From assembly GCF_000012285.1 (NCBI RefSeq), contig NC_007181.1, positions 1,162,823 to 1,186,822 on the forward strand: 24,000 bases of DNA, read 5' to 3'. Source of the DNA: Sulfolobus acidocaldarius DSM 639. GTDB taxonomy: Archaea > Thermoproteota > Thermoprotei_A > Sulfolobales > Sulfolobaceae. Position numbers and translations under genes: made by a program. This document shows, in pieces, positions 1-24,000 of this stretch; position 1 is the first letter of the stretch; each line of letters begins with the position of its first letter. The notes beneath the pieces were generated by a model. The model saw only the letters and a program-made list of their open reading frames with translations. It had not been told where the DNA came from and searched no databases.

Positions 1-210
1 TTCAAATCCGTCTCTTGGTTGATATAATATAGTGTAATCAACTAAGGAACCAGTACCTTTGCTAAATATTTTTTCTACATCCAAGGAACCGCAAACTTCA
101 CATATCTTCTGGTAAGGGAATTTTATATTCCCACATTTTTTACATTTACCTAATGCTAATCTATATAAAGTATCTTTTAGTCTCCAGCTTGTTGAAGGAC
201 TAATTTTCAT
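1..210 (-). CDS. DUF35-family Zn-ribbon/OB-fold protein, N-terminal 70 aa only (gene continues past the left edge)
   Basis: Absent from the ORF track because it is open at the edge. My translation of the reverse strand from ATG 210..208 gives MKISPSTSWRLKDTLYRLALGKCKKCGNIKFPYQKICEVCGSLDVEKIFSKGTGSLVDYTILYQPRDGFE. It has a CxxC-x11-CxxC ribbon. It starts 5 nt after the thiolase-fold gene stop, the position DUF35 takes in archaeal thiolase/HMGS clusters. Confidence 0.6.
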   Translation of the reverse strand, partial: MKISPSTSWRLKDTLYRLALGKCKKCGNIKFPYQKICEVCGSLDVEKIFSKGTGSLVDYTILYQPRDGFE

Positions 211-215
211 CCAAC

Positions 216-1310
216 TCACCTACTGAGAACAGCTAAATAAGAAGTATTTCCCAGATCATCATTTGAAAGAATTATTCCTTTTTCAGCGTTTGCACTCTTA
301 CCCTTAAACTGATTTGTCAAATGAAGGAATACCTCCCCTAACTGATATATTGCAGTTCCACCACCGATATAGCCACGTGCCTTTAATCCACCACTAAGGT
401 TAATGTCAAGAGAATCAACAACATCTAAACCTTTTCCTCTCTCTGCTAGCTTGAGCTCTTCAATTTCTAATGCAGCCATAATACTATAAGAATCGTGTAT
501 TTCGTATACAACATCTCTCTTTGGCAAATCCCCTAACTCGTTTCTAGCTTTAGCTACTGATGGTAATGAAGGATCAGATAGATTCATAGCTCCTATATTT
601 CCTACTATTCCATCAATCTTTACGGGAGAATCAAAATATCTCTTTGCTACTTCATCTGCAGTTACTAGGACTACTGAGGCACCGTCAGCTCTGGCACCTA
701 CATCAAATATTCTTAATGGATCTGAAACTATTTGAGAATTAACCACTGTGTTTTTGTCTACTTTAAATTTCAAATATGCTAAAGGATTTTCTGATGCGTT
801 TTGATGCATCTTTATAGGCCATTTAGTAAAATACTCATAATCTACGTTATATTTCTTCATATATCTCTTCATTAATAATGCACTATATGCATGAGGGGTT
901 ATTCCAACGTGGTATGTATAATCGTTATCTAGATTATATGAAAGATATTCATTTACATATTTGGACGGATAATCAGAGAACTTGTCTATTCCAATAAGTA
1001 ACACTTTTTTTGCAACTCCTGATTTAATGAACGAGTAAGCGGTTAATATCGATGCACCGCCATTATCTCCGTTCTCAATTCTCATAACTTTTGTGTTTTG
1101 AAGACCTAAACCAGATGATATCTTGTAAGATGAAAGAATATTTTTCCCTAATACGTCTATATATCCACTAGATACTATTACAATATCTGGCTGGTCATAC
1201 TCCTTAATCTTTGTAATTAGTTGTTTATAAGCCTCAGAAACGAGATCCTTTTCAGAAAGCTCATAATATCTATCTAGCTTAGTTAGTCCACAACCAACTA
1301 TTGATACCAC
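216..1310 (-). CDS. Thiolase-fold (SCP2-thiolase-like) protein; canonical catalytic Cys/His residues apparently missing
   Basis: 364-aa ORF with a GTG start overlapping the HMGS stop by 1 nt (TAGTG). Overall thiolase-like layout: SGGLKARG..GGGTAIYQLGE resembles the GGxxxxGHPxGATG loop, and EIHDSYS resembles HDCF. The only Cys is Cys7. Confidence 0.75.
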   Translation of the reverse strand: MVSIVGCGLTKLDRYYELSEKDLVSEAYKQLITKIKEYDQPDIVIVSSGYIDVLGKNILSSYKISSGLGLQNTKVMRIENGDNGGASILTAYSFIKSGVAKKVLLIGIDKFSDYPSKYVNEYLSYNLDNDYTYHVGITPHAYSALLMKRYMKKYNVDYEYFTKWPIKMHQNASENPLAYLKFKVDKNTVVNSQIVSDPLRIFDVGARADGASVVLVTADEVAKRYFDSPVKIDGIVGNIGAMNLSDPSLPSVAKARNELGDLPKRDVVYEIHDSYSIMAALEIEELKLAERGKGLDVVDSLDINLSGGLKARGYIGGGTAIYQLGEVFLHLTNQFKGKSANAEKGIILSNDDLGNTSYLAVLSR

Positions 1311-2356
1311 TATTCATACACCTTATATTTACCTGTCGTCTTTGCATATGTAGAATATGAAACAAGCACTTTTCTTTCAATATAATAATTAACCGTTGGT
1401 GCTAATTTTTGCTTTTCTAGAATCTTATCTGTAACTAATATGCTGAAAGCATCGCTGCCTGCACCACTACCGAAGGGTGCAACAAGAATCCTCTGACCTG
1501 GTTTGGCTATATCAAGAACCTTAGCCAAACCCAATAAAGCTGAGGCATTATAGGGATTTCCTATATAAGGAGAAACTAAACCATCTTTAACTTTATCCAT
1601 ACTAATTTCTAACTTTCTAGCTACTTGAAGAGGAAACTTGCCGTTAGGTTGATGGAAAACAAAGTAATCAAAATCAGATATCTTGTAGCCATTTTCCCTG
1701 AACAATAAGTTAACAGCTGACAATATATGATCGAAATATGCTGGTTCTCCAGTAAATCCCTCGCCATGCACTGGATAAGGCATGCCGTCTCTTCTCCAGA
1801 AGTCTGGTGTATCTGAGGTATATGAAACAGCTGCCTCTATAACTGCTCCAGCCTCATTCTCTGGACCGACGATATATGAGACAGATGCAGCAGCAGAACT
1901 TAACTCCAATACATCACCGGGATTAGACTGTGCTGTGTCACTCCCTATTACCAAGCCATATTTTATTTTAGAAGCTTCAACCATACCGCCAACCAGTCTC
2001 AACGCAGCCGATGCTCCCCTACAGGCAAATTCCATATCTGCACCTAAACTATCATTAGTTACTCCTAATGCGTCTATAAGAATTGTTGCAGTAGGCTTTA
2101 CCGCATATACTTTAGACTCAGATCCGAATAAAACAACGCCTATCTGAGAAGGATCGATATTTGCCCTTCTCAAAGCATTCTTTGATGACTCCCATGCCAT
2201 TGTTGTTGAATCTTCATCTACATCTGGGACTGCTTTTTCTGAGAGACCTAGGTTTTTAACAACCTGACTCTCTAATCCCCATAAATTAGCTATTTCGTTT
2301 ACATTTATTCTATATCTAGGAATATATGCACCCCATCCTACAATACCGCTTCGCAT
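1310..2356 (-). CDS. Hydroxymethylglutaryl-CoA synthase, archaeal type
   Basis: 348-aa ORF. Has the condensing-enzyme motifs GSESKVYA (Glu), [12 protein letters not shown] (nucleophilic Cys), [10 protein letters not shown] (His) and GNPYNAS. Clustered with thiolase-fold and DUF35 genes. Confidence 0.85.
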
Positions 2357-3998: not shown

Positions 3999-4093
<95 letters not shown>

Positions 4094-7909: not shown

Positions 7910-9916
7910 ATGTCATGCAAAACTCCAAAAAACTACACACTTGTAATTGCTGAAAAAAGTAAGGCAGCAAGAAAAATCGCAGAAGCGTTGTCAAATAACT
8001 ATTCATATTGTAAAAAATTCTACGTCAACTTCTGGATTGTAAATTACTCCTCTAAATATTATATAATATCACCAGCTGCAGGTCATTTGTTCAACTTATA
8101 TGGCAATTCCTCATTTCCTGTCTATGAAACAGAATGGAAACCTTTATGGCAAATAGATCCTTCAGCTAGATATACAAAGAAATATTACGATTTAATTAAA
8201 TCTCTATCTAAAGATGCACAGGAGTTTATCAATGCATGCGATTACGATATAGAAGGATCATTGATAGGTTATCTCATAATAAATTTTTTAGGTGATATAA
8301 AAAGAGCTAAGAGAGCAAAATTTTCTGCTCTGACTAAAGAAGATATACTAAACTCTTTCAGAAACTTAAAACCTTTAGACTATGACATGATTCATGCAGG
8401 TATAGCTAGACATAAAGTAGATTGGTTGTGGGGCATTAACGTAAGTAGAGCCCTTATGAAGAGCGTATATACACTTACACGAAAAAGAGTAATCCTAAGT
8501 GCTGGCAGAGTTCAGAGCCCGACATTAATACATGTAATAAACAATACAGTAAAGAGAGAATTATTTGTTCCTTTACCATACTATTCAATTAATTTAACCA
8601 TTAATTTAAAAAATAAAGAATTTAAGATAACAATACCAAAAACTTTCGAGAACAAGAATGAAGCAAAACAATACTTAGAGGAAATAAAAAAGGTAGGTGA
8701 AGTCACAGTAACTAACATAGAGTTAAAAGATGCTGTAATTTATAGACCGCCACCATTTAATTTAACAGATTTACAGCTAGAAGCTGGAAGACTATTTGGT
8801 TATTCACCATATTTAGTTGAAAGACTTGCGGAGAACCTGTACCTAAATGGGCTAATAAGTTATCCTAGAACTAATAGTCAAAAAATACCACCTTCTGTAA
8901 ATATTTATCAAATAATTGACTCCCTCTCTAAGTCAAAAAGATACGGATCACTGATAAACACATTGTCTCAAATTACCAAAGGGAAGTATATAGTAAGGCA
9001 AGGAGAAAAAGATGATCCAGCACATCCTGCAATATATCCAACTGGAGAATTACCCTATAATTTGGATACCAAGGAATTGAAACTATATGAATTAATTTTG
9101 AGACGATTTTTAGCTTCAATGTCCACAGACGCTAGAGTTAGAAAACAAGAAATAACTTTAAGGATTCCTAAAGTTGATATTGAACTAAAACTGAACATAC
9201 AGAGCCTGATATATAAAGGTTGGATAATCTTATACCCATACACTAAGTTCTCAGATGAGGAACTTCTGGATGTGAAAAAAGGAGATAAAGGGCGTATTGT
9301 AAGGGCTAACAGTACAATGAAAGTCACAAAGCCTGATACACAACGAGTATCAAAGATTCAATTACTTAAATGGATGGAGTCGAATAACTTAGGAACTGAA
9401 GCTACAAGAGGTAGAATTATAGAGACACTGTTCAAAAGAAAGTATTTAATGAGTAAGGGTAAGTACGCTTATCCCACGCCCATCGGAATCGTAGTAACTG
9501 ATGTTTTATCATCTTATTTTAAGGACTTGACGGATGTGAGATTAACATCAGAGATGGAAAAAAAATTAAACGGAATTATTAGCGGAAAATTTTCTGAGAA
9601 CGAAGTAGTTGAGGAAACTAAGAAACTAATAGAGAAATACATTAATGAATTTGAAAATTCAAAGAACGATATTGGAACTAAAATAGGAAAAATTCTAGGT
9701 CTATTAGAGTATAAAAAATGCAAATATTGTGAATTAGAAGTCTATAAAGATGATCTGTGTAAATATCACTTAAATGCAATAAAACTTCTTAAAGATAACT
9801 TGAAAATATGGAAGGAGAGGACAGATCTAACAGAAGAATCAATTATTAAAAAACTTAAAAAGCTTAACACTGCAGGGAAATTTATAAGAGATGTATTGAA
9901 TACATACTATAACTGA
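7910..9916 (+). CDS. topA: Type IA DNA topoisomerase (topoisomerase III)
   Basis: 668-aa ORF. TOPRIM Glu in LVIAEKSKAA, acidic cluster ACDYDIEGS, active-site Tyr context LISYPRTNSQ, GRVQSPTL motif, and a C-terminal Cys/His cluster CKYCELEVYKDDLCKYH. The length matches what I recall for Sulfolobus topo III. Confidence 0.9.
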   Translation: MSCKTPKNYTLVIAEKSKAARKIAEALSNNYSYCKKFYVNFWIVNYSSKYYIISPAAGHLFNLYGNSSFPVYETEWKPLWQIDPSARYTKKYYDLIKSLSKDAQEFINACDYDIEGSLIGYLIINFLGDIKRAKRAKFSALTKEDILNSFRNLKPLDYDMIHAGIARHKVDWLWGINVSRALMKSVYTLTRKRVILSAGRVQSPTLIHVINNTVKRELFVPLPYYSINLTINLKNKEFKITIPKTFENKNEAKQYLEEIKKVGEVTVTNIELKDAVIYRPPPFNLTDLQLEAGRLFGYSPYLVERLAENLYLNGLISYPRTNSQKIPPSVNIYQIIDSLSKSKRYGSLINTLSQITKGKYIVRQGEKDDPAHPAIYPTGELPYNLDTKELKLYELILRRFLASMSTDARVRKQEITLRIPKVDIELKLNIQSLIYKGWIILYPYTKFSDEELLDVKKGDKGRIVRANSTMKVTKPDTQRVSKIQLLKWMESNNLGTEATRGRIIETLFKRKYLMSKGKYAYPTPIGIVVTDVLSSYFKDLTDVRLTSEMEKKLNGIISGKFSENEVVEETKKLIEKYINEFENSKNDIGTKIGKILGLLEYKKCKYCELEVYKDDLCKYHLNAIKLLKDNLKIWKERTDLTEESIIKKLKKLNTAGKFIRDVLNTYYN

Positions 9917-9971
9917 TGATGTGAGTCATGCCATCTTGATTGATGATATTAACCCTGGGGTAACTGATTTG

Positions 9972-11096
9972 TTATAGAGCCTTATACTTCTCGTGCCAAG
10001 CCTCATATACCTTGATTACTTCTGAATTTACACTGGGTTTCCTTATTTTAAGGATCTCCTTAAAGTCCTCCATATTAACAGCTCTAGGTTGCTCTAATTT
10101 TTTGTCGAACATCTCCTTTACTACCCTTATATGGGCAGCTTGAACTATGTCTTTTATATCACTTGCAGTATACCCTTCTGTCATTTTAGCTAGTTCATCT
10201 ATATTAACATTGTCCATTTTTATCTTTGAAGTATAGTGTAATAATAGTGACTTTCTCTGCTCAATATCTGGTAAGCGTATGTATATTCTCTTCTGAAATC
10301 TTCTTAAGAACGGCTCGTCTAGTCTCCAAGGCTTATTGGTTGCACCTATAACATAGACCTTAAAATTCTCAGATTTATCCTGCAAACCATCCATTTCCTT
10401 CAGGAATTGATTTCTGACCCTAACTTCCCCACCATTTTCACTATTATATGTACCAAGTAATGCATCTATCTCGTCTATGAATATTATCACAGGTTTGCCA
10501 TCCTTCTTGGACAATTCTCTAGCACTGTTGAATATTTTTGCTACATTTTTCTCAGCCTCGCCTAGCCACTTAGACATCACTGATGCTGCGTCGACTTGAA
10601 TAAAATATGAGTCGATCTCATTAGCTACAGCAGCTGCAATCATTGTTTTACCACAGCCTGGCGGTCCATAAACCAATATACCTCTAGGCCATCCTAACGG
10701 AAATAGATCTGGTCTTCTTGTAGGATAGACAATAGCCTCTTTTAGAGCCTCCTTAACGTCTTCCAAACCCACGATGTCATTAAAGTTTACTTTAGGTTTC
10801 TCCTTCATTACTAAATCGTCTACAGAGACTTGACTGTGTTTACCATTCCCATTCCCCGCACCATCAGCAGGAATTAATTCCTTTAAAACCTCTATTCGTC
10901 TTTTATACTCATTAATCATTTGCTCATATATAGCAGCTGTCGATCCGTCCCTATATAGAGAAACCAGTTGTGCTAATACCTCGATCGCTTTCTTGTAGTT
11001 GGTAATTGCCTCTTCAGCATTTCCCTCTTTGTCGGCTTTTACAGCATTTATAGCATATTTCCTTGCCATCTCTTCAAGCATTACTTGGGCAGACAT
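9972..11096 (-). CDS. cdvC: Vps4-like AAA+ ATPase CdvC (ESCRT-III disassembly ATPase of the Cdv cell-division system)
   Basis: 374-aa ORF. N-terminal MIT-like three-helix region (about aa 1-75, 10872..11096). Walker A GPPGCGKT (10644..10667), Walker B IIFIDEID, pore loop [21 protein letters not shown] second region of homology. The start lies 2 nt after the cdvB stop, with GAGGG inside the cdvB 3' end as a Shine-Dalgarno. Confidence 0.95.
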
Positions 11097-11098
11097 AC

Positions 11099-11884
11099 TT
11101 AACCCTCAAGAACAATTAGACCCTTTTCTTCGAGTCTCCTTAACACATTGAAAACTTCATCTTTACTAACATCAAAATTCTTAGCTATGTAATCTACATC
11201 AATAAATCCACCAGTAGTCTTTATGTAATTTAGTATCATATCCTCTGATAAACTCTTCTTGTTGCTACTTTGAACTTGTTTAGCTACTCTCTTTGGTAAC
11301 TCTGAAGGTGGATGGGGTAGTTCTGGCAACAATTCTCTAACTTTTACTTCAGCCATCTTCTGAGCTTCTTCCATTATCTGTTTCGCTTGTTCGTCAGCAA
11401 CTGTTGGAACAAATGTCTTCTCGCTTAATGCACCAGTTTCAATGGCTATACTATTTACGCTACTCGTTATTGAATCTAAAGCGAGAGCCACTTCTGGTGC
11501 AATACCTCTAACTTGCTCCTTTAATTCTCCTAGTATACGCATTACTGGGAATAGCACCAGAGAAACTCCCTGTAGCTCCTGGACGGTATCTAGTTTTAAT
11601 CTTACCTTTTCTATAGCTAAATATGCAGTATATATTATTTTAATCATTTTTCGTATGTCCGAGATCTCTTGTGCATATATCGTAGCTCTCGCTATATCTC
11701 CTTCAATTTGAGATCTAATGACTTTCTCAAAGAGATCTTTGTCTCTCTCCCTTAATCTCCTTATTGCTTCGTCTAATCTATCCTGCTGCTCTTTTAATTT
11801 TAAAGATATTTCAGTTATCGCTTTGGACAAATGCACCTTTCTCTTTCTATCACTATTAAAAATTATCGATAACTTATCAAACAT
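11099..11884 (-). CDS. cdvB: ESCRT-III (Snf7-like) protein CdvB with C-terminal MIM2 motif and winged-helix domain
   Basis: 261-aa ORF with a long helical-hairpin N-terminal core. Proline-rich [15 protein letters not shown] (11294..11338) is the MIM2-type Vps4-MIT ligand. The C-terminal 50 aa (11102..11251), [46 protein letters not shown], have a winged-helix pattern. Confidence 0.95.
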
Positions 11885-11901
11885 CCTATGTCACTAATTC
11901 T

Positions 11902-12618
11902 TCATAAAGTATTTATTACCCTTACTGGTATTGGAACAGACACTTCAGACTTATTACCCTCGTTCTTATTTGACTGTTCTGTTGACGTGTTTAATGAGGC
12001 AGAAGGCTTAAGTTCTATTACCTCCTTATCCAATCCGTCAAGTTTATCTAGAGTTTTCTTTATATCGTCTCTTTCCAATGCATAACTATCCCTAGACAGT
12101 CTTAGAATTTCCATAGAATTTTTATATGCAAGTTCTGGTATTTCACCCGATATGTAATTTATCTTCAATGCAATCATAGCTCTATCAATTTGAGCAACTT
12201 GGTCCTCTATTGAGTTTAATCTATCTTTTAATCTTCCCTTTAATCTTGAATGCTCATCTCTTATCTTTAGCAACTCACTGTCTAACTTCCTTTTCATATC
12301 CTCATATGTACTTTTAGGTATCTCTTGCCTAGAGTATAACTCCTCGAGCGCTCTTTGTCTCTTCCTTATCTTCTCCATCTGTCCTAATACTTTCAAAGAG
12401 TCGGTTTTCCAATCAGGTAATATTACTACAGAATCTCCATCAACTTTTACGCTATTCGGAGAATATGTCTTGATTTCTTCACCTTTAAATAATTCAATAC
12501 CTGTTATTGTACCATCAATTTCAGTATAAACATGAACTATTACTCCAGCATCACGACCATAAACGTCCTTTACCTTTTGCCCTATGAACTTTGTTAATAC
12601 CTCAACCGGAATGCCCAT
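11902..12618 (-). CDS. cdvA: CdvA (PRC-barrel, coiled coil and C-terminal ESCRT-III-binding peptide), membrane-recruiting component of the Cdv system
   Basis: The ORF track starts at TTG 12633. I prefer ATG 12618 (MGIPVEV..., 238 aa) because GAGGAG lies 7 nt upstream and the TATA geometry puts the TSS near 12633. N-terminal beta-rich PRC-barrel-like region, central heptad-rich helical region, and a C-terminal tail ..[15 protein letters not shown]. Confidence 0.95.
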
Positions 12619-12625
12619 GGTATTA

Positions 12626-12664
12626 CTCCTCAAAGTTATCAGCTATGATGATTATATTTATAAG
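12626..12664 (-). promoter_or_regulatory. cdvA promoter and ribosome-binding region
   Basis: The minus strand reads CTTATAAATATAATCATCATAGCTGATAACTTTGAGGAGTAATACC-ATG. TATA is TTATAAATATAA (12650..12664). GAGGAG (12631..12626) lies 7 nt before the ATG and complements the Sulfolobus anti-SD core. Confidence 0.55.
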
Positions 12665-12670
12665 AATTTA

Positions 12671-12730
12671 GGCTCTTCAGTAGGTAGAGGTTCATCATCA
12701 ATAAGCGCTTTTAACCCTCATCATTAGCCC
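12671..12730 (-). ncRNA. C/D box sRNA (2'-O-methylation guide RNA)
   Basis: The minus strand reads GGGCUA-AUGAUGA-GGGUUAAAAGCG-CUUA-UUGA-UGAUGA-ACCUCUACCUA-CUGA-AGAGCC. Box C 12724..12718, 12-nt guide, degenerate D' CUUA, C' UGAUGA 12697..12692, 11-nt guide, box D 12680..12677. Terminal stem GGCU/AGCC, about 60 nt total. TATA GTTTATAAGC lies about 20-22 nt upstream of the 5' end. Confidence 0.8.
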
Positions 12731-12749
12731 CATAATATTACGCTAATTA

Positions 12750-12759
12750 GCTTATAAAC
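12750..12759. promoter_or_regulatory. Palindromic TATA element (GCTTATAAAC / GTTTATAAGC) shared by the C/D sRNA (minus) and the leaderless small membrane gene (plus)
   Basis: The TTATAA core is centred at about 12754.5. That is about 25-27 nt from the sRNA 5' end (12730..12728) and about 29 nt from ATG 12784. Confidence 0.5.
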
Positions 12760-12783
12760 ATTTAAAGATGAACCTAATAATTA

Positions 12784-13032
12784 ATGAGCCTGGAAACATT
12801 TCACTATATTGCTAATCAATTATCAGGTATATTTAACTTCAATGGAGAGCCTTTAGCTACAGCATTAATAATACTAGGATTGGCAATACTTTCAATAATG
12901 ATATTGGCTGGGTTAATTTATGGAGCAATAAAGGTAGTTAAAGCAGTTCCAAACATGCCTTTTAAACAGTTCATCATAGTAATGCTAATGATAGCAGTAT
13001 TCTTAGTAATTGTTGGAGTACTAATACCCTAA
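12784..13032 (+). CDS. Small membrane protein (two predicted TM helices), unknown function
   Basis: 82-aa ORF with two long hydrophobic stretches ([26 protein letters not shown] and [19 protein letters not shown]). Convergent 4-nt overlap with the enolase stop. Confidence 0.5.
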
Positions 13033-14279
13033 AGGTAAAAATTTTTACCGTAAAACTCTAATCCATAATCCAACTCTATTTCTATTAACCTGTTATACTT
13101 ACTTGTTCTCTCTCCTCTTGAAGGTGCACCAGTTTTGATGAACTCACTTTGGGTACCTACTGCAAGATCAGCTATTATAGAATCTTCGGTCTCTCCGCTC
13201 CTGTGGCTAACAATTGTCTTCACAGCATTTCTTCTAGCGAAATCTATATAATCTAAAGTTTCGGTTATGGTTCCAATTTGATTGGGCTTTACTATGGTAC
13301 CTTTACTTGACATTCTTTCTATTCCCTTCTTCAAATATTCTATATTTGTCACATACAAATCGTCACCGGTTACAATAGTTTTTTTCAGCTTACTTTGCAA
13401 CTGAGAAAATGAATCATAATCGTTCTCTTCAAAGGGATCTTCAATATACATTAAAGGATACATATCTGCTAATTGCTTGTAGTAATCTATCAATTCACCT
13501 GCAGTATACCTCTTACCATCTAGTTCATAGTGAGACTCATGAAAGAAATTAGAGGCTGCAGCGTCCATACCCATAAAAATCTTGTCCTCATATCCTAGGC
13601 TTTTTATAGATGTATAAACGAGATCCAATGCGTCCATCGTCTTTTCAAGTGGAGGAGAAAATCCCCCTTCATCACCTAAGGCTGTATATATCTTTCCATA
13701 CCTTTCTGTGATTAAGTCCTTTAGCCTTTTATATACTTCGATGGAGGCTTGAATGGCTTCTGTAAACTTATCAAAATTCTTGGGAATTATGATAAATTCC
13801 TGAATCTTTAGATTATTTCCTGCGTGAAGACCACCATTTAATATATTCAAAAGAGGCATTGGAATGTATTTGGCTCTGGGACCTCCTATATATTCAAAGT
13901 ACTCCTGTCCTAAAGCTCTTGATGCAGTTTTCAAAACAGCTATAGAAGTTGCTATCATAGTATTACCACCAATTCTTGATTTATTTTGTGTGCCATCAAG
14001 CCTTATTAGCGTTGTATCTATAACCCTTTGCCTTCTCACATCATAATCTTTTAGAGAATCACTCAATACAGTATTTACTAGTTCTACGGCATCAATAACT
14101 CTCCCATTTTTATCCTTCAGCTCTACGGCTTCATTTGCACCTTTTGATGCTCCTGCAGGAGCATCGCCAAATCCTACTATTCCGTCGTAAGTTTCCACTC
14201 TAACTCTGATTGTCCTATTAGCTCTAGAATCAATTATCTCATAACCCTTTAATTTCCTTATTCTAAACCTATCGTTCAT
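13029..14279 (-). CDS. eno: Enolase (2-phosphoglycerate dehydratase)
   Basis: The ORF track extends to 14345. I prefer ATG 14279 ([30 protein letters not shown]..), which aligns with the usual enolase N-terminus and avoids overlap with the divergent gene. Has the signature [18 protein letters not shown] and KPNQIGT. Confidence 0.9.
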
Positions 14280-14317
14280 TTTAAGTCTGTTTGTGTATAT
14301 TTTGGATAAGATAATAA

Positions 14318-14629
14318 ATGTTAGTCTCGGAGGCTGTTCTTCCACTATTATTCTATGGAATATTAACGCCTGTATACCAAGTAATTTTAAGGGGGAAAAT
14401 TAGTAATGTAAAAGGGTTTTATCTAGCCTGGATAACAGCACCGTTCCTGGTGGGATATTTCTTTTACTCAACTTTAGTTGAGGTTTTTCTGTTACTTATA
14501 TTCAATATAATTGGCTATATCATTGTTCTTAAAAATAAATACAAGTACATATTTCCACTACTTCTTTTTTCAGCAGTGATAATACAAATATTTTATATCT
14601 TAACAACACTACATACTATTCATGGTTAG
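14318..14629 (+). CDS. Small integral membrane protein, unknown function
   Basis: 103-aa ORF with three hydrophobic segments. Its stop overlaps the start of the next gene by 8 nt. Confidence 0.45.
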
Positions 14630-14939
14630 AAAGAAAGCAATTGAAGCAGACGTTTGTCCTAACTGTGGTAAAAAAGCTGAAAAACCAGTTAAGACATGGC
14701 AATTGGTATCTCCATTACCAGACGCCTACGGAAGAATAACAATTACAGTTATGGGATCATATGAATGCGGTAATTGTGGACATAAATGGAAAGCAGTAGT
14801 TTCTAAGATAAAAGCTGGTGGAAGCTCAGTAGAAATTGAAGGAAAGAAAGGAAAGAAAACTATAGGAGAGGAGAAAGAAGATAAAAGAGAGGGAGAAGTT
14901 ATAGAATTGGATATAAGTGATTTAGATGAAGAAGAGTGA
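14622..14939 (+). CDS. Zinc-ribbon protein with acidic C-terminal tail, unknown function
   Basis: 105-aa ORF with CPNCG...CGNCGH (CxxC-x33-CxxC). The C-terminus is Lys/Glu rich and ends DISDLDEEE. Confidence 0.55.
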   Translation: MVRKKAIEADVCPNCGKKAEKPVKTWQLVSPLPDAYGRITITVMGSYECGNCGHKWKAVVSKIKAGGSSVEIEGKKGKKTIGEEKEDKREGEVIELDISDLDEEE

Positions 14940-15339
14940 TGTAGCGATAGTACTTGTCGTGATACTAATTTACGTTGTATTGTTCTCTGGAATTGTCCAG
15001 ACAGCCAGTATTGAAGGAGTGTCAATGTATCCAGTTTTCCAAAACGGATTCCTTACTTTTTATGTATCACCGTCTGATATCTCAGTAGGAAACATAGTTA
15101 TATATAAGTCAACTGTCGGTACTTATGTTATCCATCAGGTGATACATATCGATGGAAATTCTTACGTGACAAAAGGTGTTGATAACATAACAAATTACCT
15201 TCCAGATAATAAAATAGGTTTAGAGCCTCAATCTGGAATTCCAAAAACAGCAGTTATTGGAAAAGTAGCTGAGGTAAATGGGTTTGTAATAAGTATACCC
15301 TACTTAGGTTATATTTCTATATTATTCTCTTCATTGTAG
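14926..15339 (+). CDS. Type I signal peptidase (S26 family, Sec11/archaeal type)
   Basis: 137-aa ORF with an N-terminal TM anchor. Catalytic Ser context GVSMYPVF, His context YVIHQVIH, and TKGVDN resembling the TKGDNN box. Overlaps the upstream gene by 14 nt. Confidence 0.7.
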   Translation: MKKSDVAIVLVVILIYVVLFSGIVQTASIEGVSMYPVFQNGFLTFYVSPSDISVGNIVIYKSTVGTYVIHQVIHIDGNSYVTKGVDNITNYLPDNKIGLEPQSGIPKTAVIGKVAEVNGFVISIPYLGYISILFSSL

Positions 15340-16848
15340 ATTTTTTACCTTACCCTCTTGTCTTAATCTATAAACTCTGTATGTAGGAGTTATTGTGCTT
15401 GGATGATTTGCAGTAACTTGGTCTATTCTACCTACAGCAGTATTGGTAGGAGATGAGATTACATTATTAGGATTGTTGTAAGCCTCTCTAGCTATCTCAG
15501 TTAGAGCCTCTGCAAAAGAGTCTAATACTTCCTTAGGCTCAGTCTCTGTTGGTTCAATCATAATAGATTCCTCTATATTTGGAGGAAAATATATTGTTGG
15601 TGCATAGAAACCCCTATCAAGTAAGGCTTTAGCTATATCGAAAGCTGTAACACCCTTATCCCTCGCCAACTCCTTTGCTGAAAATACAACCTCATGTTTT
15701 CTTGGTCTATACGGAGCAATTAGATCTAAGCCTTTGACATTTCTAAGCTTAAAAATAATATAGTTGGTTGCTAAGGTACTTAGTTTTCCTATCATGGATA
15801 ATCCCTCAGCTCCAAGTCCTAGAATGTATACATATGATCTTACAACATTTCCTATGTTACCATAAAAAGATGCAATCTTTCCTATAGTGTGCTTTGGAAT
15901 GTAATCTATGGCATATTTACCATTTTTCTTTTCTACTATTGGATAAGGTAGAAAATCTACCATATCTCCTTTAGCACATATAGCACCTGCACCTGGTCCT
16001 CCTCCTCCATGTGGAACTGCAAACGTTTTATGAAGATTAAGATGAACTATATCAAAACCCATGTCTCCTGGTCTCACTACACCCAATATTCCATTCATAT
16101 TAGCTCCATCATAGTATAGCTTAGCATCTACGTTATGAAGCAACTTAGCTATTTCCACTATATTTTCTTCGAAAAGACCTAAAGTATTTGGATTAGTGAG
16201 CATAAATCCAGCTGTTTTCTCTCCTACTACCTCTCTTAATAAATCAATATCCACTAACCCCTCTTTATTAGATCTAATATAGATTACCTTGTAACCAGCC
16301 ATCGCAGCACTTGCTGGGTTAGTTCCATGTGCAGTATCTGCAACTAACATTTCATCTCTACTAAACCTCTCCTTTAATTCATGATACTTCTTTATCATCA
16401 GAACGCCAGCTAACTCGCCTGCTGAACCAGCCGGTACTTGCAAACTACATATATCAGTCCCTGTTATTTCAGCTAACATAAGTTGCATTTCATAAATGAT
16501 CTCTAAGATTCCTTGAACAGTCTCAGAATCCTGCAAGGGATGTAAACCTGAAACAACGTCGCTTATCTTTTCTTCGACTTTTGGATTATATTTCATTGTG
16601 CAGGAACCCAGCGGTACAAATCCTGTATCTACACCAAAACTCATTTGGGATAATCTTATGTAGTGTCTTACAGCCTCTAACTCACTAATGGAAGGTAGAT
16701 TAGGCTCATTTCTCCTCTTTAGATTTTCAGGAATGTTTAAGGTTATTTCTTTTCTTAAACTATCGTCATGAGTAATTAAAGTTCCTACTCTGCCATTGCC
16801 CTTATATTCAGTTATTAATGGTTCATCCCACTTCGCTTGTCTCCACAC
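15331..16848 (-). CDS. gcvPB: Glycine dehydrogenase (decarboxylating) subunit 2, P-protein beta
   Basis: 505-aa ORF with the PLP-lysine context HLNLHKTFAVPHGGGGPG. Starts 1 nt after the gcvPA stop. Confidence 0.9.
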   Translation of the reverse strand: MWRQAKWDEPLITEYKGNGRVGTLITHDDSLRKEITLNIPENLKRRNEPNLPSISELEAVRHYIRLSQMSFGVDTGFVPLGSCTMKYNPKVEEKISDVVSGLHPLQDSETVQGILEIIYEMQLMLAEITGTDICSLQVPAGSAGELAGVLMIKKYHELKERFSRDEMLVADTAHGTNPASAAMAGYKVIYIRSNKEGLVDIDLLREVVGEKTAGFMLTNPNTLGLFEENIVEIAKLLHNVDAKLYYDGANMNGILGVVRPGDMGFDIVHLNLHKTFAVPHGGGGPGAGAICAKGDMVDFLPYPIVEKKNGKYAIDYIPKHTIGKIASFYGNIGNVVRSYVYILGLGAEGLSMIGKLSTLATNYIIFKLRNVKGLDLIAPYRPRKHEVVFSAKELARDKGVTAFDIAKALLDRGFYAPTIYFPPNIEESIMIEPTETEPKEVLDSFAEALTEIAREAYNNPNNVISSPTNTAVGRIDQVTANHPSTITPTYRVYRLRQEGKVKNLQ

Positions 16849-16849
16849 A

Positions 16850-18193
16850 TCAAAGCACCTCCGCTATACTTTTGACTAGCTCATCAATCATAACCCTTGT
16901 ATGGACCTCAGTAAAGCAAAATAACGCACAATAATCATTTAGCTGTAAACCCCCGTGTATTCGTTTATTTAAGAGACTTGAATGGATCAAATTATAATTC
17001 TTAGGAAATTGAATTACAAATTCTTCAAAGAACTCCCCTGAATATGGAGATTTAAAACCGAGTTCTTCAAATTTCTTTTTGGCGTAGTGACTTCTTACAT
17101 ATATTTCTTCTGCTAGATCCCTTAGACCATGTTTACCTAATAACGAAAGATAGACCGCTGAACCTATTGCCATAAGTGTTTCATTTGTAGTTATATTTGA
17201 TGTGGCTTTCTCCCTTCTTGTAAACTGTTCTCTTGTTTGCAATATTAATGTGAAAGCCCTATTCCCTTTTTCATCTTTTGTTAAACCTACAATCCTACCA
17301 GGCATTTGTCTCACTAGTTGAGAATCCCACCTTACAGCAAAAATGCCCATAAGCGGACCTCCATAGTTTAGTGGTAATCCAATTTCTTGCCCATCACCTA
17401 CTGCTATGTCAATACCGTATTCCCCTGGGGGCTTAATTAAACCAAGAGATAATGGAGACACCCCCATAATAGTTATTATATTTTTCTTCTTTGCAAAATC
17501 CACTATATATTCTATGTTTTCCTCAAAAATTCCGTAAAAATTAGGTTGCTGAATATAAATGGCAGATACGTCGTCTGTGTTAATTTGTTCTAATTTTTCG
17601 ATATCTATTTGACCTGATGTAGAATCTGTAGGCAATTCGGTTATTCTGATACCTTTACCGTAAACCCATGTCTTTACTACCTCTCTATGGTAAGGATTCA
17701 TATTTGAAGGCAAAAGCACGCTCTTTCTCCGATTTATTCTATGTGCCATCAGAACAGCTTCCGCTATAGCACTAGCCCAATCGTACATTGATGCATTTAC
17801 AAACTCCATTTCTAATAATTCAGCCATAAGGCTTTGATATTCATAAATTGCCTGCAGAAGACCTTGAGAGATTTCAGGTTGATACGGAGTATAAGCAGTA
17901 TAAAACTCCGATCTAGACATAATGAACTTTACAGCCTCCGGTATATAGTGAGGGCATAGACCCCCTCCTATAAAAGGAGGGTATTTAAGTTCTAGATTTT
18001 TCTTCTTCAGTTCATTAAGCCTTTGAGAAATCTCGTACTCGGAAAGAGGTTTATCATAAGGTATGTTAAGTTTCCTTTTAAGTATCAAATCTTGAGGAAC
18101 GTCAGAAAATAAATTCATAATGTCATTAACGCCTATTTCCTTGAGCATTTCCTCGGTATACTTTAAGTTAGGTAACCAAGGATGCATTTCCAT
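16850..18193 (-). CDS. gcvPA: Glycine dehydrogenase (decarboxylating) subunit 1, P-protein alpha
   Basis: The ORF track starts at GTG 18211. I prefer ATG 18193 (MEMHPWLPNLKY..), which matches the M-x-x-HPWLPN N-terminus I recall for Sulfolobales orthologues. Has YTPYQPEISQG and NASMYDW motifs. Confidence 0.9.
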   Translation of the reverse strand: MEMHPWLPNLKYTEEMLKEIGVNDIMNLFSDVPQDLILKRKLNIPYDKPLSEYEISQRLNELKKKNLELKYPPFIGGGLCPHYIPEAVKFIMSRSEFYTAYTPYQPEISQGLLQAIYEYQSLMAELLEMEFVNASMYDWASAIAEAVLMAHRINRRKSVLLPSNMNPYHREVVKTWVYGKGIRITELPTDSTSGQIDIEKLEQINTDDVSAIYIQQPNFYGIFEENIEYIVDFAKKKNIITIMGVSPLSLGLIKPPGEYGIDIAVGDGQEIGLPLNYGGPLMGIFAVRWDSQLVRQMPGRIVGLTKDEKGNRAFTLILQTREQFTRREKATSNITTNETLMAIGSAVYLSLLGKHGLRDLAEEIYVRSHYAKKKFEELGFKSPYSGEFFEEFVIQFPKNYNLIHSSLLNKRIHGGLQLNDYCALFCFTEVHTRVMIDELVKSIAEVL

Positions 18194-18233
18194 ATTTAAG
18201 GTCATTCTCACATTATATACCAGATGGTTAATA
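18194..18233. promoter_or_regulatory. 40-bp divergent gcvPA / gcvT control region with two interdigitated TATA-like boxes
   Basis: Sequence atttaaggtcattctcacattatataccagatggttaata. TTATATA (18213..18219) lies about 23 nt from the gcvPA ATG on the minus strand. ATTTAAG (18194..18200) is the only AT-rich box upstream of gcvT on the plus strand. Confidence 0.4.
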
Positions 18234-19289
18234 ATGTTTAGTTCACCACTTTTGGATATTGAGACAAAACTAAATGCAGATATAGGAGAATTCGCAAACT
18301 GGAAAATGCCTATGAAATATACTAGTTATCAAGACGAACATCTTCTAGTAAGAACATCAGTAGCATTCTTTGATATATCCCATATGGGTAGACTTAAAGT
18401 TTCAGGAAACCAAAATGAACTGGAATTCCTCGTCTCCAAAGAAATTTCTAAAAACAAACCAAATTCAATGATTGGACCCACAGCATTTCTTAATGACAAG
18501 GGAGGATTCGAAGATGATGTAATGATTTATAAGGTATCAGAAAATGAATTCTTAATCGTAACTAATGCTATAAATCGTGAGAAAATAATTAATTGGATAG
18601 GAAAAAATTCTGGATTGAATGTTGAAGATCTGACATTTAAATATGGGATGCTTGCAATTCAGGGAAGGAACGTCTGGAATTTCATAGAAAAAGCTGAGGT
18701 TAAACCACTAGAGTTTATTTTAAATACCAAGTTTCTTGGGGAAAACGTATTTTTACTAAGTAGATCAGGTTGGACAGGAGAAGATGGCTTAGAAGTTTGG
18801 GCTGATGCAAATACGCTAACTTCGATAATTCAGAAATTACTGAAACTTGGTATAAAACCGGCAGGATTAATAGCTAGAGATAGTTTGAGGCAAGAAATGG
18901 GGTACGTATTATACGGAGAGGACATAGATTCCAACATTACACCAGTGGAAGCAAGATATTGGGTGTTCTCACTCGATAAGGATTTCATAGGTAAAGAAAA
19001 AATAATGGAACATGTAGAGAATGGTGTTAATAGAATAAGATTAGGATTCAAACTTAAGAAAGATGATAGACTTCTTCCTCGAAAAGATTATAAGATAAAG
19101 TCTCCCTTAGGCTCAAGGGATGTCGGATACGTAACAAGTAGCACATTCAGTCCCTATTTAAACAGGGTTATTGGAATGGGGTACATAAAACCTGAGTACG
19201 CTTACATAGGCTATGAGCTTGCAATAGATATTAGAGGGAAACAAGTAAAAGCAAAAATTTCCGATTTCCCTCTTATTAATACGAGGTGA
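18234..19289 (+). CDS. gcvT: Aminomethyltransferase, glycine cleavage T-protein
   Basis: The ORF track starts at 18120, inside gcvPA on the other strand. ATG 18234 ([13 protein letters not shown]..) gives a normal N-terminus. Has FDISHMGRL, and the LAIQGRNV and [11 protein letters not shown] motifs typical of GcvT. Confidence 0.9.
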
Positions 19290-19296
19290 AACTTTA

Positions 19297-19713
19297 ATGA
19301 GTGTAGTAATCGACGGTAAATATCTAATTCTTAAAGATAGGCATTACACCGAGACCGATGAGTGGATATTAATCAACGGGAACATTGCAACAGTTGGAAT
19401 AACAGATTACGCTCAGAAGAAACTTAAGGATATAGTAGGAATAGAACTACCACAAGTGGGTAGAGAAGTAACTATAGGAGAACAAGTTGCTGTCGTGGAA
19501 TCTGTTAAGGCTGCTGCAGATATATTTTCCCCTCTCTCCGGTAGTGTACTAGAAGTAAATAAGGAATTACAGAGTTCCCCTGAGACAATTAATAAGGATC
19601 CTTATGGTAGGGGATGGATATTCAAACTAAAGATAAAAGATGAGAAAGAGGTATCTAAATTACTAAATTTCGAACAATACATTATTTCGATAAAACAAAG
19701 AGAGGGAATTTAA
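19297..19713 (+). CDS. gcvH: Glycine cleavage H-protein (lipoyl carrier)
   Basis: 138-aa ORF with the lipoyl-lysine context [19 protein letters not shown] and a TDYAQ motif. Confidence 0.9.
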
Positions 19714-20459
19714 TGAGCAGTGTAGAAATATTAGAGGATTATATACCACAGTTAACAAGACCTTCTTACCTTATTGTCGGATTACCCGATGCTGGATTAG
19801 TAGGTACAATTGCCACCGAATTCCTTGTCAAAAAATTAGGATTAAGTGAATTTGCTACTATTTATGCACCTGATATTTTACCGCCGATAATGCATGTAAG
19901 AGACGGAATAGCTAAATCACCATTGAAGTTTTATCATAATGGTAAGAACATGATAGTATTTCACTCATATATAGCATTACCTTTCTCAGTGATTAACCAG
20001 ATAGCTAAAACTTTGATCGACTTCGCAAAGAAGTATGGGATAAATAACATAATTTCCATAACAGGCATACCAGTAGAGAACAGATTATCTGCGACTACAC
20101 TAAATTCATTTGTAATAGGGAATAACCAACAAGTAACTGAAGAGATAGAAAAAATGGGATTGTCGAAAAAGTTTGGTGAAGGATATATAGCAGGTCCTTA
20201 TGCCCCCATATTATCCTATTCCCAAAGGGAAAAGTTAAATAATATAATAATAGTCGTCGAATCTTTTATGGATTTGCCAGATCCAGAAGCTTCCGCAATA
20301 GCTTTATCCATCTTGTCAAAATACATTGGTTTCCCCTTGGATACAGAAGAACTACTTAAAGAGGCTGAGGAAGTTAGAGAGAGAATTAGGGGACTTATGT
20401 CTCAGACTAGAGAGGAATTACCAAAGTACGCAACAGGTAGACCGATGACATACGCGTGA
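19713..20459 (+). CDS. PAC2-family (proteasome assembly chaperone-like) protein
   Basis: 248-aa ORF whose ATG overlaps the gcvH TAA by 1 nt (TAATG). The N-terminal LIVGLPDAGLVGTIA is typical of the archaeal PAC2/DUF75 family. The C-terminus ends ..GRPMTYA, with a penultimate Tyr. Confidence 0.6.
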   Translation: MSSVEILEDYIPQLTRPSYLIVGLPDAGLVGTIATEFLVKKLGLSEFATIYAPDILPPIMHVRDGIAKSPLKFYHNGKNMIVFHSYIALPFSVINQIAKTLIDFAKKYGINNIISITGIPVENRLSATTLNSFVIGNNQQVTEEIEKMGLSKKFGEGYIAGPYAPILSYSQREKLNNIIIVVESFMDLPDPEASAIALSILSKYIGFPLDTEELLKEAEEVRERIRGLMSQTREELPKYATGRPMTYA

Positions 20460-20911: not shown

Positions 20912-21913
20912 TTGAGTGAAGGAGCAGGAAGATTTTCTAAAGACGTAGAGACTAGAAAGGTACAAAGATTAGGTTCATCTTCACTCTTTATAACTTTACC
21001 CAAGAAGTGGATCAATAAATGGGGAGTAAAACCTGGTGATAAAATTATTATAGAAATTTCCGAGGATGGAGGTCTTAGACTCGTTGCGGAAAAAGTGAAA
21101 AATACCTACACTAAAAAGAGCATTAAAATTGACGTGGACAATTATAAACAAAGTATAGTAAACGCCATACCTTCTCTTTATATTTTAGGATATGATGAAA
21201 TGTTATTTACGACCAAGAAAAACCTAGATCCAAAAGAGGTTGAAAATGTAATTACTTTGTCCAAGAATCTAGTAGGAATTGAAGTCGCAGAGAACAATAA
21301 TAACCTAATAAGATTAGATTGCCTACTTGATACTGAGAAGCTTGGTTCAGAGACATTACTTAGAAGAATATTAAATATTATTTCTAAGAAAGTAGATGAA
21401 ATAATTGAATATTTAAGAGGACAACAGAGCACAGAGGTTCAACAAACATTAGAAGATTTAAGAAGAGTATACCTCATGCTATTGAGAAGAAGTATAGGGA
21501 ATAAATATATGGCAGAAAGGGATAAAGTAAGGAACTTCATAATAGCAATCAATTCTACGATAATGATGAGAGTCTACAGAATTATATCTAAATTGTATGA
21601 TGAAATTAAACATAATCAAATTTCACTTCCACAAGAACAAGCAAAAACTTTAATTGATATGTTCAGGGAGACTAACGACCTTTTTGACGAAATCATTATG
21701 AGCATACTTTTCCCCAGTATAAAGAGAATTTCGAACGGTTATACATTAATAAATCAGCTTAAACAAAAATATGAAAGATTGGATATAAAAGATAATTTAA
21801 TTAGAAATTATTTTGAAGATCTTATATTTAACCTTGAAGAAGCTTTAAATAACTCCTCCTGTTCCATATTCTTAGAGGACGCTCCTTGGATAGAGAGAAA
21901 TTTTAACTCATAA
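20912..21913 (+). CDS. AbrB/SpoVT-type DNA-binding domain fused to a PhoU-like helical domain (putative transcriptional regulator)
   Basis: 333-aa ORF with a TTG start. The N-terminus RKVQRLGSSSLFITLPKKWINKWGVKPGDKIIIEI is a swapped-hairpin AbrB-type motif. The remainder is helical-repeat, as in archaeal PhoU-homologue regulators. TATA TTTTTATAAA lies about 35 nt upstream. Confidence 0.6.
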   Translation: MSEGAGRFSKDVETRKVQRLGSSSLFITLPKKWINKWGVKPGDKIIIEISEDGGLRLVAEKVKNTYTKKSIKIDVDNYKQSIVNAIPSLYILGYDEMLFTTKKNLDPKEVENVITLSKNLVGIEVAENNNNLIRLDCLLDTEKLGSETLLRRILNIISKKVDEIIEYLRGQQSTEVQQTLEDLRRVYLMLLRRSIGNKYMAERDKVRNFIIAINSTIMMRVYRIISKLYDEIKHNQISLPQEQAKTLIDMFRETNDLFDEIIMSILFPSIKRISNGYTLINQLKQKYERLDIKDNLIRNYFEDLIFNLEEALNNSSCSIFLEDAPWIERNFNS

Positions 21914-21939
21914 AACAAATATAAACAGGTGACAGAGAA

Positions 21940-22686
21940 ATGGTCATGTTAAAAATAGAGGACATCCATGTTGAAGTTGAAGGTAAAAAAATACTAAAAG
22001 GAATAGACATGGAAATAAAGTCAGGAGAAATACATGTATTAATGGGACCTAATGGAAGTGGAAAAACTTCACTTTCCTTAGCATTGATGGGTCATCCTAA
22101 ATATAAAATAACTCAGGGCAAAATATTACTTGATAACGAGGATATAACTAGCCTAGAGACCTTTGAAAAAGCGCGAAAAGGTATATTTCTTGCCTTCCAG
22201 AACCCTATAGAAATTAGTGGAGTTAAACTATCAACTTTATTAATAGCAGAGTATTCCAGAATGCATAGTTCAACAGCACAACCTCAGATGATTATCAAAC
22301 AGATAAAAGAAGTCAGCAAATCAGTAGGAGTTAATGACTCTCTACTTAATAGAGGAATATTTGATGGCTTTAGCGGAGGAGAAAAGAAGAGAACAGAGAT
22401 TCTACAGATGTTATTAATAAAACCGAAAATAGCCATACTTGATGAACCCGACTCTGGTGTAGATGTGGATGGGCTTAAAGCCATTTCAGATGCCATATTA
22501 AAATTAAAGTCTGAATCAAATACTGGCTTCTTAATAATAACTCATTACAGAAGAATATTAGAGCATCTAAATGCCGATAAAGTACATATACTCTACAACG
22601 GTAAAATAGTAAGAAGCGGAGGTATGGAATTAGCAAAATTAGTCGATGAGAAAGGGTACGAAGGAGCTCTAAAACAGTTTTTATAA
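21940..22686 (+). CDS. sufC: Fe-S cluster assembly ATPase SufC
   Basis: 248-aa ORF with Walker A GPNGSGKTS, ABC signature FSGGEKKR and Walker B AILDEPDSG. Has the SufC-typical N-terminus LKIEDIHVEVEGKKILKG. AGGTGA lies 7 nt upstream of the ATG. Confidence 0.9.
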   Translation: MVMLKIEDIHVEVEGKKILKGIDMEIKSGEIHVLMGPNGSGKTSLSLALMGHPKYKITQGKILLDNEDITSLETFEKARKGIFLAFQNPIEISGVKLSTLLIAEYSRMHSSTAQPQMIIKQIKEVSKSVGVNDSLLNRGIFDGFSGGEKKRTEILQMLLIKPKIAILDEPDSGVDVDGLKAISDAILKLKSESNTGFLIITHYRRILEHLNADKVHILYNGKIVRSGGMELAKLVDEKGYEGALKQFL

Positions 22687-22756
22687 AACTATTCATAAAA
22701 CATTGATGACTAAGTTTAAATGTTATCTTTAACAGAGTTTATATTGGGTAATTCAA

Positions 22757-24000
<1,244 letters not shown>

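Follow-up and report, generated by a model that had tools for sequence, protein, structure and literature searches.

We analyzed a 24-kb stretch of DNA from Sulfolobus acidocaldarius DSM 639 (hereafter the window, meaning the whole stretch; approximately 35% G+C), in which the interval 9972-12664 holds three adjacent genes of the archaeal Cdv cell division system, namely cdvA, cdvB and cdvC (also called vps4). All of them lie on the minus strand, which fits the three co-oriented genes of the original prediction, an earlier reading of this DNA that gave no strand. The genes and the records that identify them are as follows.

11902-12618, minus strand: cdvA (Saci_1374), 238 residues, non-ESCRT template-ring protein; NF041007, identity to AAY80708.1 / CDVA_SULAC, alignment to 9S9G
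11099-11884, minus strand: cdvB (Saci_1373), 261 residues, ESCRT-III homologue with a C-terminal extension; NF041008, identity to AAY80707.1 / CDVB_SULAC
9972-11096, minus strand: cdvC / vps4 (Saci_1372), 374 residues, MIT-AAA+ ATPase; NF041006, identity to AAY80706.1 / CDVC_SULAC, PDB 4LCB

The genes are separated by gaps of 17 nucleotides (nt; cdvA-cdvB) and 2 nt (cdvB-cdvC). For cdvA, the mechanically called open reading frame (ORF) occupies 11902-12633, starts from TTG and encodes 243 residues, and the recorded form begins at the ATG at 12618 and encodes 238. The end of the interval originally proposed, position 12664, is located 46 nt past the cdvA start codon, at the base that directly precedes the TATA element TTATAAAT; the interval 9972-12664 therefore takes in the core promoter of cdvA as well as the coding sequences.

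Identity of the locus

Exact-sequence look-up among about 15 billion proteins revealed that CdvC, CdvB and CdvA are each 100% identical to a deposited S. acidocaldarius protein, and the locus is therefore the S. acidocaldarius reference cdvABC. The lengths first proposed (238/261/374 residues) agree exactly with the recorded proteins, and the proposed match to Saci_1374/1373/1372 holds residue for residue (AAY80708/07/06). These locus tags are used in the literature for CdvA, CdvB and Vps4/CdvC, respectively (PMC4045173, PMC9976878). Moreover, the NCBIfam equivalog hidden Markov models (HMMs) for CdvC (NF041006), CdvB (NF041008) and CdvA (NF041007) were matched at 697.8, 448.5 and 417.6 bits against cut-offs of 650, 370 and 350, with E-values of 1e-125 to 1e-210. 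Essentially the whole profile was covered in each case (positions 2-235 of 235 for CdvA), so the naming of the products as CdvA, CdvB and CdvC/Vps4 passes curated cut-offs for all three.

No FtsZ ORF and no additional Snf7 ORF was seen among the ORFs of the 24-kb window. Crenarchaeota have been reported to be without FtsZ, and published work supports both that ftsZ is absent and that cdvB paralogues exist elsewhere in the genome (PMC4045173).

Judged from these sequence matches, it is virtually certain that the interval represents cdvA-cdvB-cdvC of S. acidocaldarius, the central part of the machinery with which Sulfolobales carry out ESCRT-III-based cytokinesis, and nothing contradicting the assignment was found. 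The locus has already been thoroughly described and is the founding member of the Cdv group rather than a variant of it. Thus the original prediction, which claimed no novelty, was right on this point, and the four papers that it cited are real and all stand in the reference list of PMC12818579.

Domain architecture of the three proteins

The following elements of CdvC were recognized, all encoded on the minus strand.

10878-11069, minus strand: MIT domain, residues 10-73; Pfam MIT, 39.8 bits against a cut-off of 30
10275-10679, minus strand: AAA+ ATPase domain, residues 140-274; Pfam AAA, 135.6 bits, above cut-off
10644-10667, minus strand: Walker A motif GPPGCGKT, residues 144-151; read from the sequence
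10464-10487, minus strand: Walker B motif IIFIDEID, residues 204-211; codon of E209 at 10470-10472
9987-10112, minus strand: Vps4_C oligomerisation domain, residues 329-370; Pfam PF09336, 26.1 bits against a cut-off of 21.3

Together with the AAA lid at residues 296-332 (Pfam, 40.1 bits, above cut-off), they make up the architecture of a Vps4 AAA+ ATPase, with an MIT domain, a single AAA cassette bearing Walker A and B motifs, a lid and Vps4_C. The earlier description of the product as an MIT-AAA+ Vps4 ATPase is borne out by this architecture and by NF041006. E209, the catalytic glutamate, is the residue altered in the published Vps4 E209Q mutant (TFB2 preprint). The whole protein could be aligned to the CdvC of PDB 4LCB (E = 3e-183). 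Its residues 1-75 are 100% identical to chain A of PDB 2W2U, an entry that contains the complex with the MIM2 peptide.

CdvB contains three recognizable parts.

11306-11884, minus strand: ESCRT-III core, residues 1-193; aligned to the S. islandicus CdvB crystal structure 9S9J (E = 6e-89)
11306-11338, minus strand: MIM2 motif, residues 183-193, the Vps4 MIT-binding peptide; the same residues as the published deletion 183-193 (PMC12909875)
11105-11251, minus strand: broken winged-helix domain, residues 212-260; match to the ESCRT-III winged helix of PDB 2XVC (E = 5e-7)

The crystal structure of S. islandicus CdvB has the canonical five-helix ESCRT-III fold (PMC12818579), and by homology to this solved structure (9S9J) the S. 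acidocaldarius protein should adopt it as well. The published dissection of the 261-residue CdvB uses the segments 183-193, 194-211 and 212-253; the winged helix binds the E3B peptide of CdvA and is a determinant of cell-cycle-dependent degradation (PMC12909875). Sub-threshold MarR and helix-turn-helix Pfam matches were also found at residues 213-260. Both the MIT domain of CdvC and residues 183-193 of CdvB are present, and the two would be expected to recognize each other.

CdvA was likewise divided into three elements.

12409-12594, minus strand: predicted N-terminal PRC-barrel domain, residues 9-70; Pfam PRC PF05239 (sub-threshold) and the S. islandicus CdvA crystal structure
12001-12363, minus strand: coiled-coil domain, residues 86-206; Pfam PF18822, CdvA-like coiled-coil, 150.3 bits, E = 3e-44
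11905-11934, minus strand: C-terminal E3B (ESCRT-III-binding) peptide, residues 229-238; conserved in the 9S9G alignment

In the 243-residue numbering the coiled coil spans residues 91-211. CdvA could be aligned over its full length to S. islandicus CdvA 9S9G (E = 5e-101), whose crystal structure shows a PRC domain together with a coiled coil of three helices (PMC12818579). The role of E3B as an ESCRT-III-binding peptide has been described (PMC12818579, PMC12909875). Since both the E3B peptide of CdvA and the broken winged helix of CdvB are encoded here, the two proteins may bind each other through these elements.

Conservation in related genomes

Comparison loci were collected by a CdvA scan of species-representative genomes, which returned four loci (S. 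acidocaldarius itself was not among them): Candidatus Aramenus, two Metallosphaera species and one Sulfolobales metagenome-assembled genome. Three of these, from Aramenus and the two Metallosphaera species, were long enough for gene order to be judged. The order cdvA-cdvB-cdvC is kept in all three, with similar gaps, and the encoded proteins share 52-63% (CdvB) and 72-73% (CdvC) identity with those in the window. For CdvA, identity across the four loci is 56-60%, and an enolase gene is located upstream of cdvA in each of them. It is worth noting that identity across these genomes is 72-78% in the DNA upstream of cdvA, higher than the conservation of the encoded CdvA. The present analysis itself establishes the identities of the proteins, their motifs, the gene order and the conservation of the promoter.

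The cdvA promoter and the aCcr1 operator

Three signals were located in the short region upstream of the cdvA start codon.

12656-12663, minus strand: putative cdvA TATA box TTATAAAT; direct sequence reading, CTT[A/T]TAA kept in all five aligned genomes
12619-12627, minus strand: predicted aCcr1-box AGTAATACC, -9 to -1 of the cdvA ATG; agrees with the published 9-nt consensus AGTAATACN
12628-12631, minus strand: Shine-Dalgarno-like GAGG in the short cdvA 5' untranslated region; inside the invariant block TTTGAGGAG, putative function

The 9-nt consensus AGTAATACN has been reported for saci_1374, and aCcr1 is a ribbon-helix-helix repressor that binds and represses cdvA (PMC9976878). The factors aCcr1, aCcr2 and aCcr3 have all been reported as binding and repressing the cdvA promoter (PMC9976878, among other sources). 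In the window, AGTAATACC at 12627-12619 appears between the putative TATA box at 12663-12656 and the start codon, the arrangement by which members of the aCcr1 regulon are recognized. As AGTA[A/T]TACC, the box is invariant and at the same position in five genomes, namely the window and the four other Sulfolobales, and it is included in an invariant block, TTTGAGGAGTA[A/T]TACC, that adjoins the cdvA start codon. In addition, TFB2 is enriched at the cdvABC promoter by chromatin immunoprecipitation sequencing (ChIP-seq) and has been proposed as the driver of the D-phase transcription wave (TFB2 preprint).

A sigma-70 promoter and intrinsic-terminator scan of 9800-12900 returned 11 promoter-like hits against 11.1 expected and one terminator-like hit against 1.2 expected, and is uninformative for an archaeon.

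Evaluation of the assignment

Several observations limit the picture given so far. The first two concern the generic domain models. Pfam Snf7 (PF03357) matched CdvB residues 26-190 at 25.9 bits, short of the gathering threshold of 27.3, with the match covering profile positions 2-167 of 171, and Pfam PRC (PF05239) matched CdvA at 14.1 bits (E = 0.049), short of the threshold of 21.2, over profile positions 7-75 of 78. Therefore, the equivalog models and the S. islandicus crystal structures are the basis of the ESCRT-III and PRC-barrel calls, and only the CdvA structure 9S9G points to the predicted PRC fold. The HMM searches that the original prediction had proposed as a check were consequently divided in outcome: MIT, AAA and Vps4_C scored above their Pfam cut-offs, whereas Snf7 and PRC remained below gathering thresholds. 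Its description of CdvA as a PRC-barrel/coiled-coil protein is sustained for the coiled coil (PF18822) and by the equivalog match, and its PRC part is owed to the S. islandicus structure. That of CdvB as a Snf7-like ESCRT-III protein with a winged helix agrees with NF041008, 9S9J and 2XVC, with the qualification that the Pfam Snf7 match is sub-threshold and the winged helix is a broken one. Both the ESCRT-III and the PRC-barrel labels are right.

The operator raises two further points. A single exact aCcr1-box was found in 24 kb, where about 1.4 would be expected by chance, so that the count by itself is no more than chance. The call is supported by position, invariance, and the published electrophoretic mobility shift and ChIP data, not by the count. 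Besides, according to the TFB2 preprint many promoters, including that of cdvA, carry two to three aCcr1 boxes each, whereas one box was found here when up to one mismatch was allowed. A second box in the cdvA promoter was absent within one mismatch, and two-mismatch candidates were seen only around -124. Lastly, reports on the transcription-unit structure conflict as to whether cdvA is transcribed alone or as part of cdvABC.

One operon or two transcription units

The original prediction treated the three genes as a single operon. This simplifies the reported situation: in S. acidocaldarius, cdvA has been described both as independently transcribed and as co-transcribed with cdvBC (PMC7951960). 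Under the alternative, the aCcr1-controlled promoter would serve cdvA alone, and a second promoter, located within the 3' end of cdvA, would drive cdvB-cdvC. Such a division would suit the finding that CdvA builds up earlier than CdvB (PMC12909875), as well as aCcr1 occupancy and boxes that have been reported at cdvA and not at cdvB (PMC9976878, TFB2 preprint). It would also suit a TATA-like element, TAATAAATA (11918-11910), found some 30 nt ahead of the cdvB ATG and present in three of four genomes (it is lost in M. javensis). The conservation of this element is confounded, because TAATAAATA overlaps the constrained codons of E3B, and both the overlap and the loss in M. javensis weaken the case for an internal promoter. 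Moreover, silencing of cdvA in S. solfataricus reduced cdvB and cdvC equally, suggesting a polycistronic mRNA (PMC7951960), and cdvABC is handled as one operon in the TFB2 preprint. Because reports exist of cdvA being transcribed on its own and together with cdvBC, we consider one operon and two transcription units to be evenly balanced.

For the two distal genes, one further signal was found.

11104-11107, minus strand: Shine-Dalgarno-like GAGG for cdvC, within the 3' end of cdvB; invariant in all four aligned genomes

Its context is TGAGGG in the window and TGGAGG in the other three genomes. Since this GAGG is invariant inside the 3' end of cdvB, 8-10 nt ahead of the cdvC start, we infer that a single transcript serves the translation of both cdvB and cdvC, possibly with translational coupling.

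Division mechanism and comparison with known systems

Nothing in the window departs from the published Cdv mechanism, the steps of which have been described for these same proteins (PMC12818579, PMC12909875, PMC9976878, TFB2 preprint); ring assembly, extraction, degradation and repression all come from such experiments. In these published accounts, expression is gated by the cell cycle, the cdvA core promoter (TATA box at 12663-12656) being followed by the predicted aCcr1 operator abutting the start codon. CdvA builds up first, forming a template ring of antiparallel double-stranded filaments at mid-cell. By inserting into and completing CdvB's broken winged helix (residues 212-260), the E3B peptide of CdvA recruits CdvB into a non-contractile ring, and CdvB1 and CdvB2, encoded outside the window, join that ring afterwards. 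The MIT domain of CdvC/Vps4 binds the MIM2 motif of CdvB (183-193), and the AAA+ ATPase (Walker A 144-151, E209) extracts CdvB from the ring. Degradation of the extracted CdvB by the proteasome frees the CdvB1/B2 polymer to constrict and cut the membrane. Formation of the mid-cell ring and the requirement for cytokinesis have both been established by published experiments on the same proteins (PMC12818579, PMC12909875, TFB2 preprint).

We also considered whether the locus might serve mainly for membrane budding, such as vesicle secretion or virus egress, instead of cytokinesis. Archaeal ESCRT components have also been tied to vesicle secretion (PMC4045173), and the title of a work in the reference list of PMC12818579 ties S. 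islandicus ESCRT-III paralogues to budding. On the other hand, CdvA, CdvB and Vps4 have been located at the division ring, and division fails without them, according to localisation, dominant-negative and knock-down data (PMC7951960, PMC12818579, PMC12909875, TFB2 preprint). Budding roles are additions to the division role and not substitutes for it, and a locus devoted mainly to budding is thus very improbable. Even less probable, to the point of being negligible, is that the CdvB match represents a degenerate or paralogous copy (e.g., CdvB1/B2-like) and not the primary division gene, since the protein, which also matches the CdvB1/B2 and CdvB3 models, reaches just 142 bits on the former (cut-off 350) and 38 on the latter (cut-off 170), but passes its own model (448.5 against 370), is identical to CDVB_SULAC and carries the winged-helix extension specific to CdvB, equivalog scores and sequence identity together refuting this idea.

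Compared with S. acidocaldarius cdvABC (CDVA/CDVB/CDVC_SULAC), sequences, lengths, order, motif positions, the MIT domain (2W2U) and the aCcr1-box are the same; no difference was detected, and the window contains that very locus. The proteins of Saccharolobus islandicus and S. solfataricus (9S9G, 9S9J, 2XVC, 4LCB, 4LGM) have the same domain architecture and give full-length alignments with E-values of 1e-89 to 1e-183, but they are orthologues and not identical to those of S. acidocaldarius. In S. islandicus an aCcr1-box is located at the same position upstream of cdvA as here; its cdvA promoter, however, carries two aCcr1-boxes (PMC9976878), whereas one clear box is present in the window.

With eukaryotic ESCRT-III (Snf7/CHMP) and Vps4, the archaeal proteins have in common the five-helix fold (shown for S. 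islandicus CdvB), the MIT-AAA-Vps4_C architecture, MIT-MIM2 recognition, and ATP-driven polymer disassembly at a membrane neck. The Cdv system differs in that it is without homologues of ESCRT-0, -I and -II, recruitment depends on the archaea-specific CdvA and a broken winged helix in CdvB, proteasomal removal of CdvB sets off constriction, and CdvB falls below the Pfam Snf7 threshold. In the FtsZ-based division of Euryarchaeota, the PRC-barrel protein CdpB acts early in organising the division ring, as CdvA does, but the polymer there is the tubulin-like FtsZ instead of ESCRT-III.

A candidate sR1-family small RNA gene upstream of cdvA

Further examination of the region upstream of cdvA revealed a candidate small RNA (sRNA) gene, which is the sole item beyond the account of the cdv locus given by the original prediction.

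12671-12730, minus strand: candidate C/D box sRNA gene, Rfam sR1 (RF01152); Rfam match 12675-12729, full model 1-57

The match scored 43.3 bits (E = 1.1e-9) and was missed by a default Rfam scan because this is below the gathering score of 45. No variation was seen among the five Sulfolobales genomes in its C box (ATGATGA), its D box (CTGA) or its 5' guide (GGTTAAAAGC). The gene is on the same strand as cdvA; only 8 nt separate the 3' terminal stem of the sRNA, which ends at about 12671, from the cdvA TATA box. A TATA-like TTTATAAG (approximately 12758-12751) precedes the 5' end of the sRNA by about 25 nt. Sulfolobus, Metallosphaera and Aramenus share this arrangement of sR1 and cdvA. We found no report of the adjacency in the literature, and neither Dennis et al. 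2015 nor the L7Ae RNA immunoprecipitation sequencing paper contains information on sR1 or on its location beside cdvA. The adjacency is most simply explained as conserved synteny. It is also conceivable, though distinctly unlikely, that transcription of or read-through from the sRNA gene, or assembly of L7Ae/fibrillarin on the nascent RNA, modulates firing of the cdvA promoter.

Divergent from both sR1 and cdvA is a hydrophobic ORF of 82 residues (12784-13032, plus strand) without a Pfam family, whose counterparts, 39-48% identical, occupy the same position in each of the four related loci. It is probably a real gene for a small membrane protein, because the alignment shows invariant columns with a three-base periodicity.

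Neighboring genes

Convergent with cdvC, and 55 nt away from it, is a gene for a type IA DNA topoisomerase (7910-9916, plus strand; Toprim and Topoisom_bac domains, 668 residues), which also neighbors the Aramenus locus (52% identity) and is not found in the two Metallosphaera loci. On the other side of cdvA, the enolase gene occupies 13029-14345 (minus strand). Its mechanical ORF begins at GTG, and its true start is probably an internal ATG, since relatives align only from residue 18-23 on. Beyond it along the window are three consecutive small ORFs (14318-15339, plus strand; 103, 105 and 137 residues) that overlap slightly and have no Pfam match above threshold. The first of these looks hydrophobic, and the third has a weak signal-peptidase S26-like match (18.6 bits, below cut-off).

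A glycine-cleavage set at 15331-19713 is arranged in two divergent units, one for the two P-protein subunits (15331-18211, minus strand) and one for proteins T and H (18120-19713, plus strand). The mechanical ORFs of the P subunit and the T protein overlap by about 90 nt at their starts, and one start has therefore probably been called too far upstream. At 19713-20459 (plus strand), about 7 kb from the cdv locus, lies a gene for a PAC2-family protein (149 bits). PAC2 is a family of proteasome assembly chaperones. CdvB is a proteasome substrate, and the proximity of the two genes is probably coincidental.

The region 20912-24000 (plus strand), probably a suf unit for Fe-S cluster assembly, encodes a 333-residue protein whose N-terminal domain is of the MazE/AbrB type, then an ABC ATPase, and lastly a SufB/D protein truncated by the end of the window. 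At the opposite end (1-2356, minus strand) are ACP_syn_III_C-like, thiolase-like and zinc-ribbon (ChsH2-type) genes, the last cut at the window edge; this trio presumably resembles the archaeal thiolase/HMG-CoA synthase/DUF35 trio. A tRNA was detected by Rfam at 3999-4093 (plus strand; 61.1 bits), and it probably contains an intron because it measures 95 nt for a 71-position model. ARAGORN reported no tRNA in the window.

Biological significance

The structures, interactions, aCcr1/TFB2 regulation and degradation that characterize this locus were published between 2008 and 2026, and to these the locus itself adds nothing new. If the coupling of sR1 to cdvA considered above were true, it would link ribosome-biogenesis activity to the onset of division. 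The Cdv system corresponds, among prokaryotes, to the ESCRT-III/Vps4 abscission of eukaryotes, and it serves as a central model for the pre-eukaryotic evolution of membrane scission and of proteasome-gated cell-cycle control.

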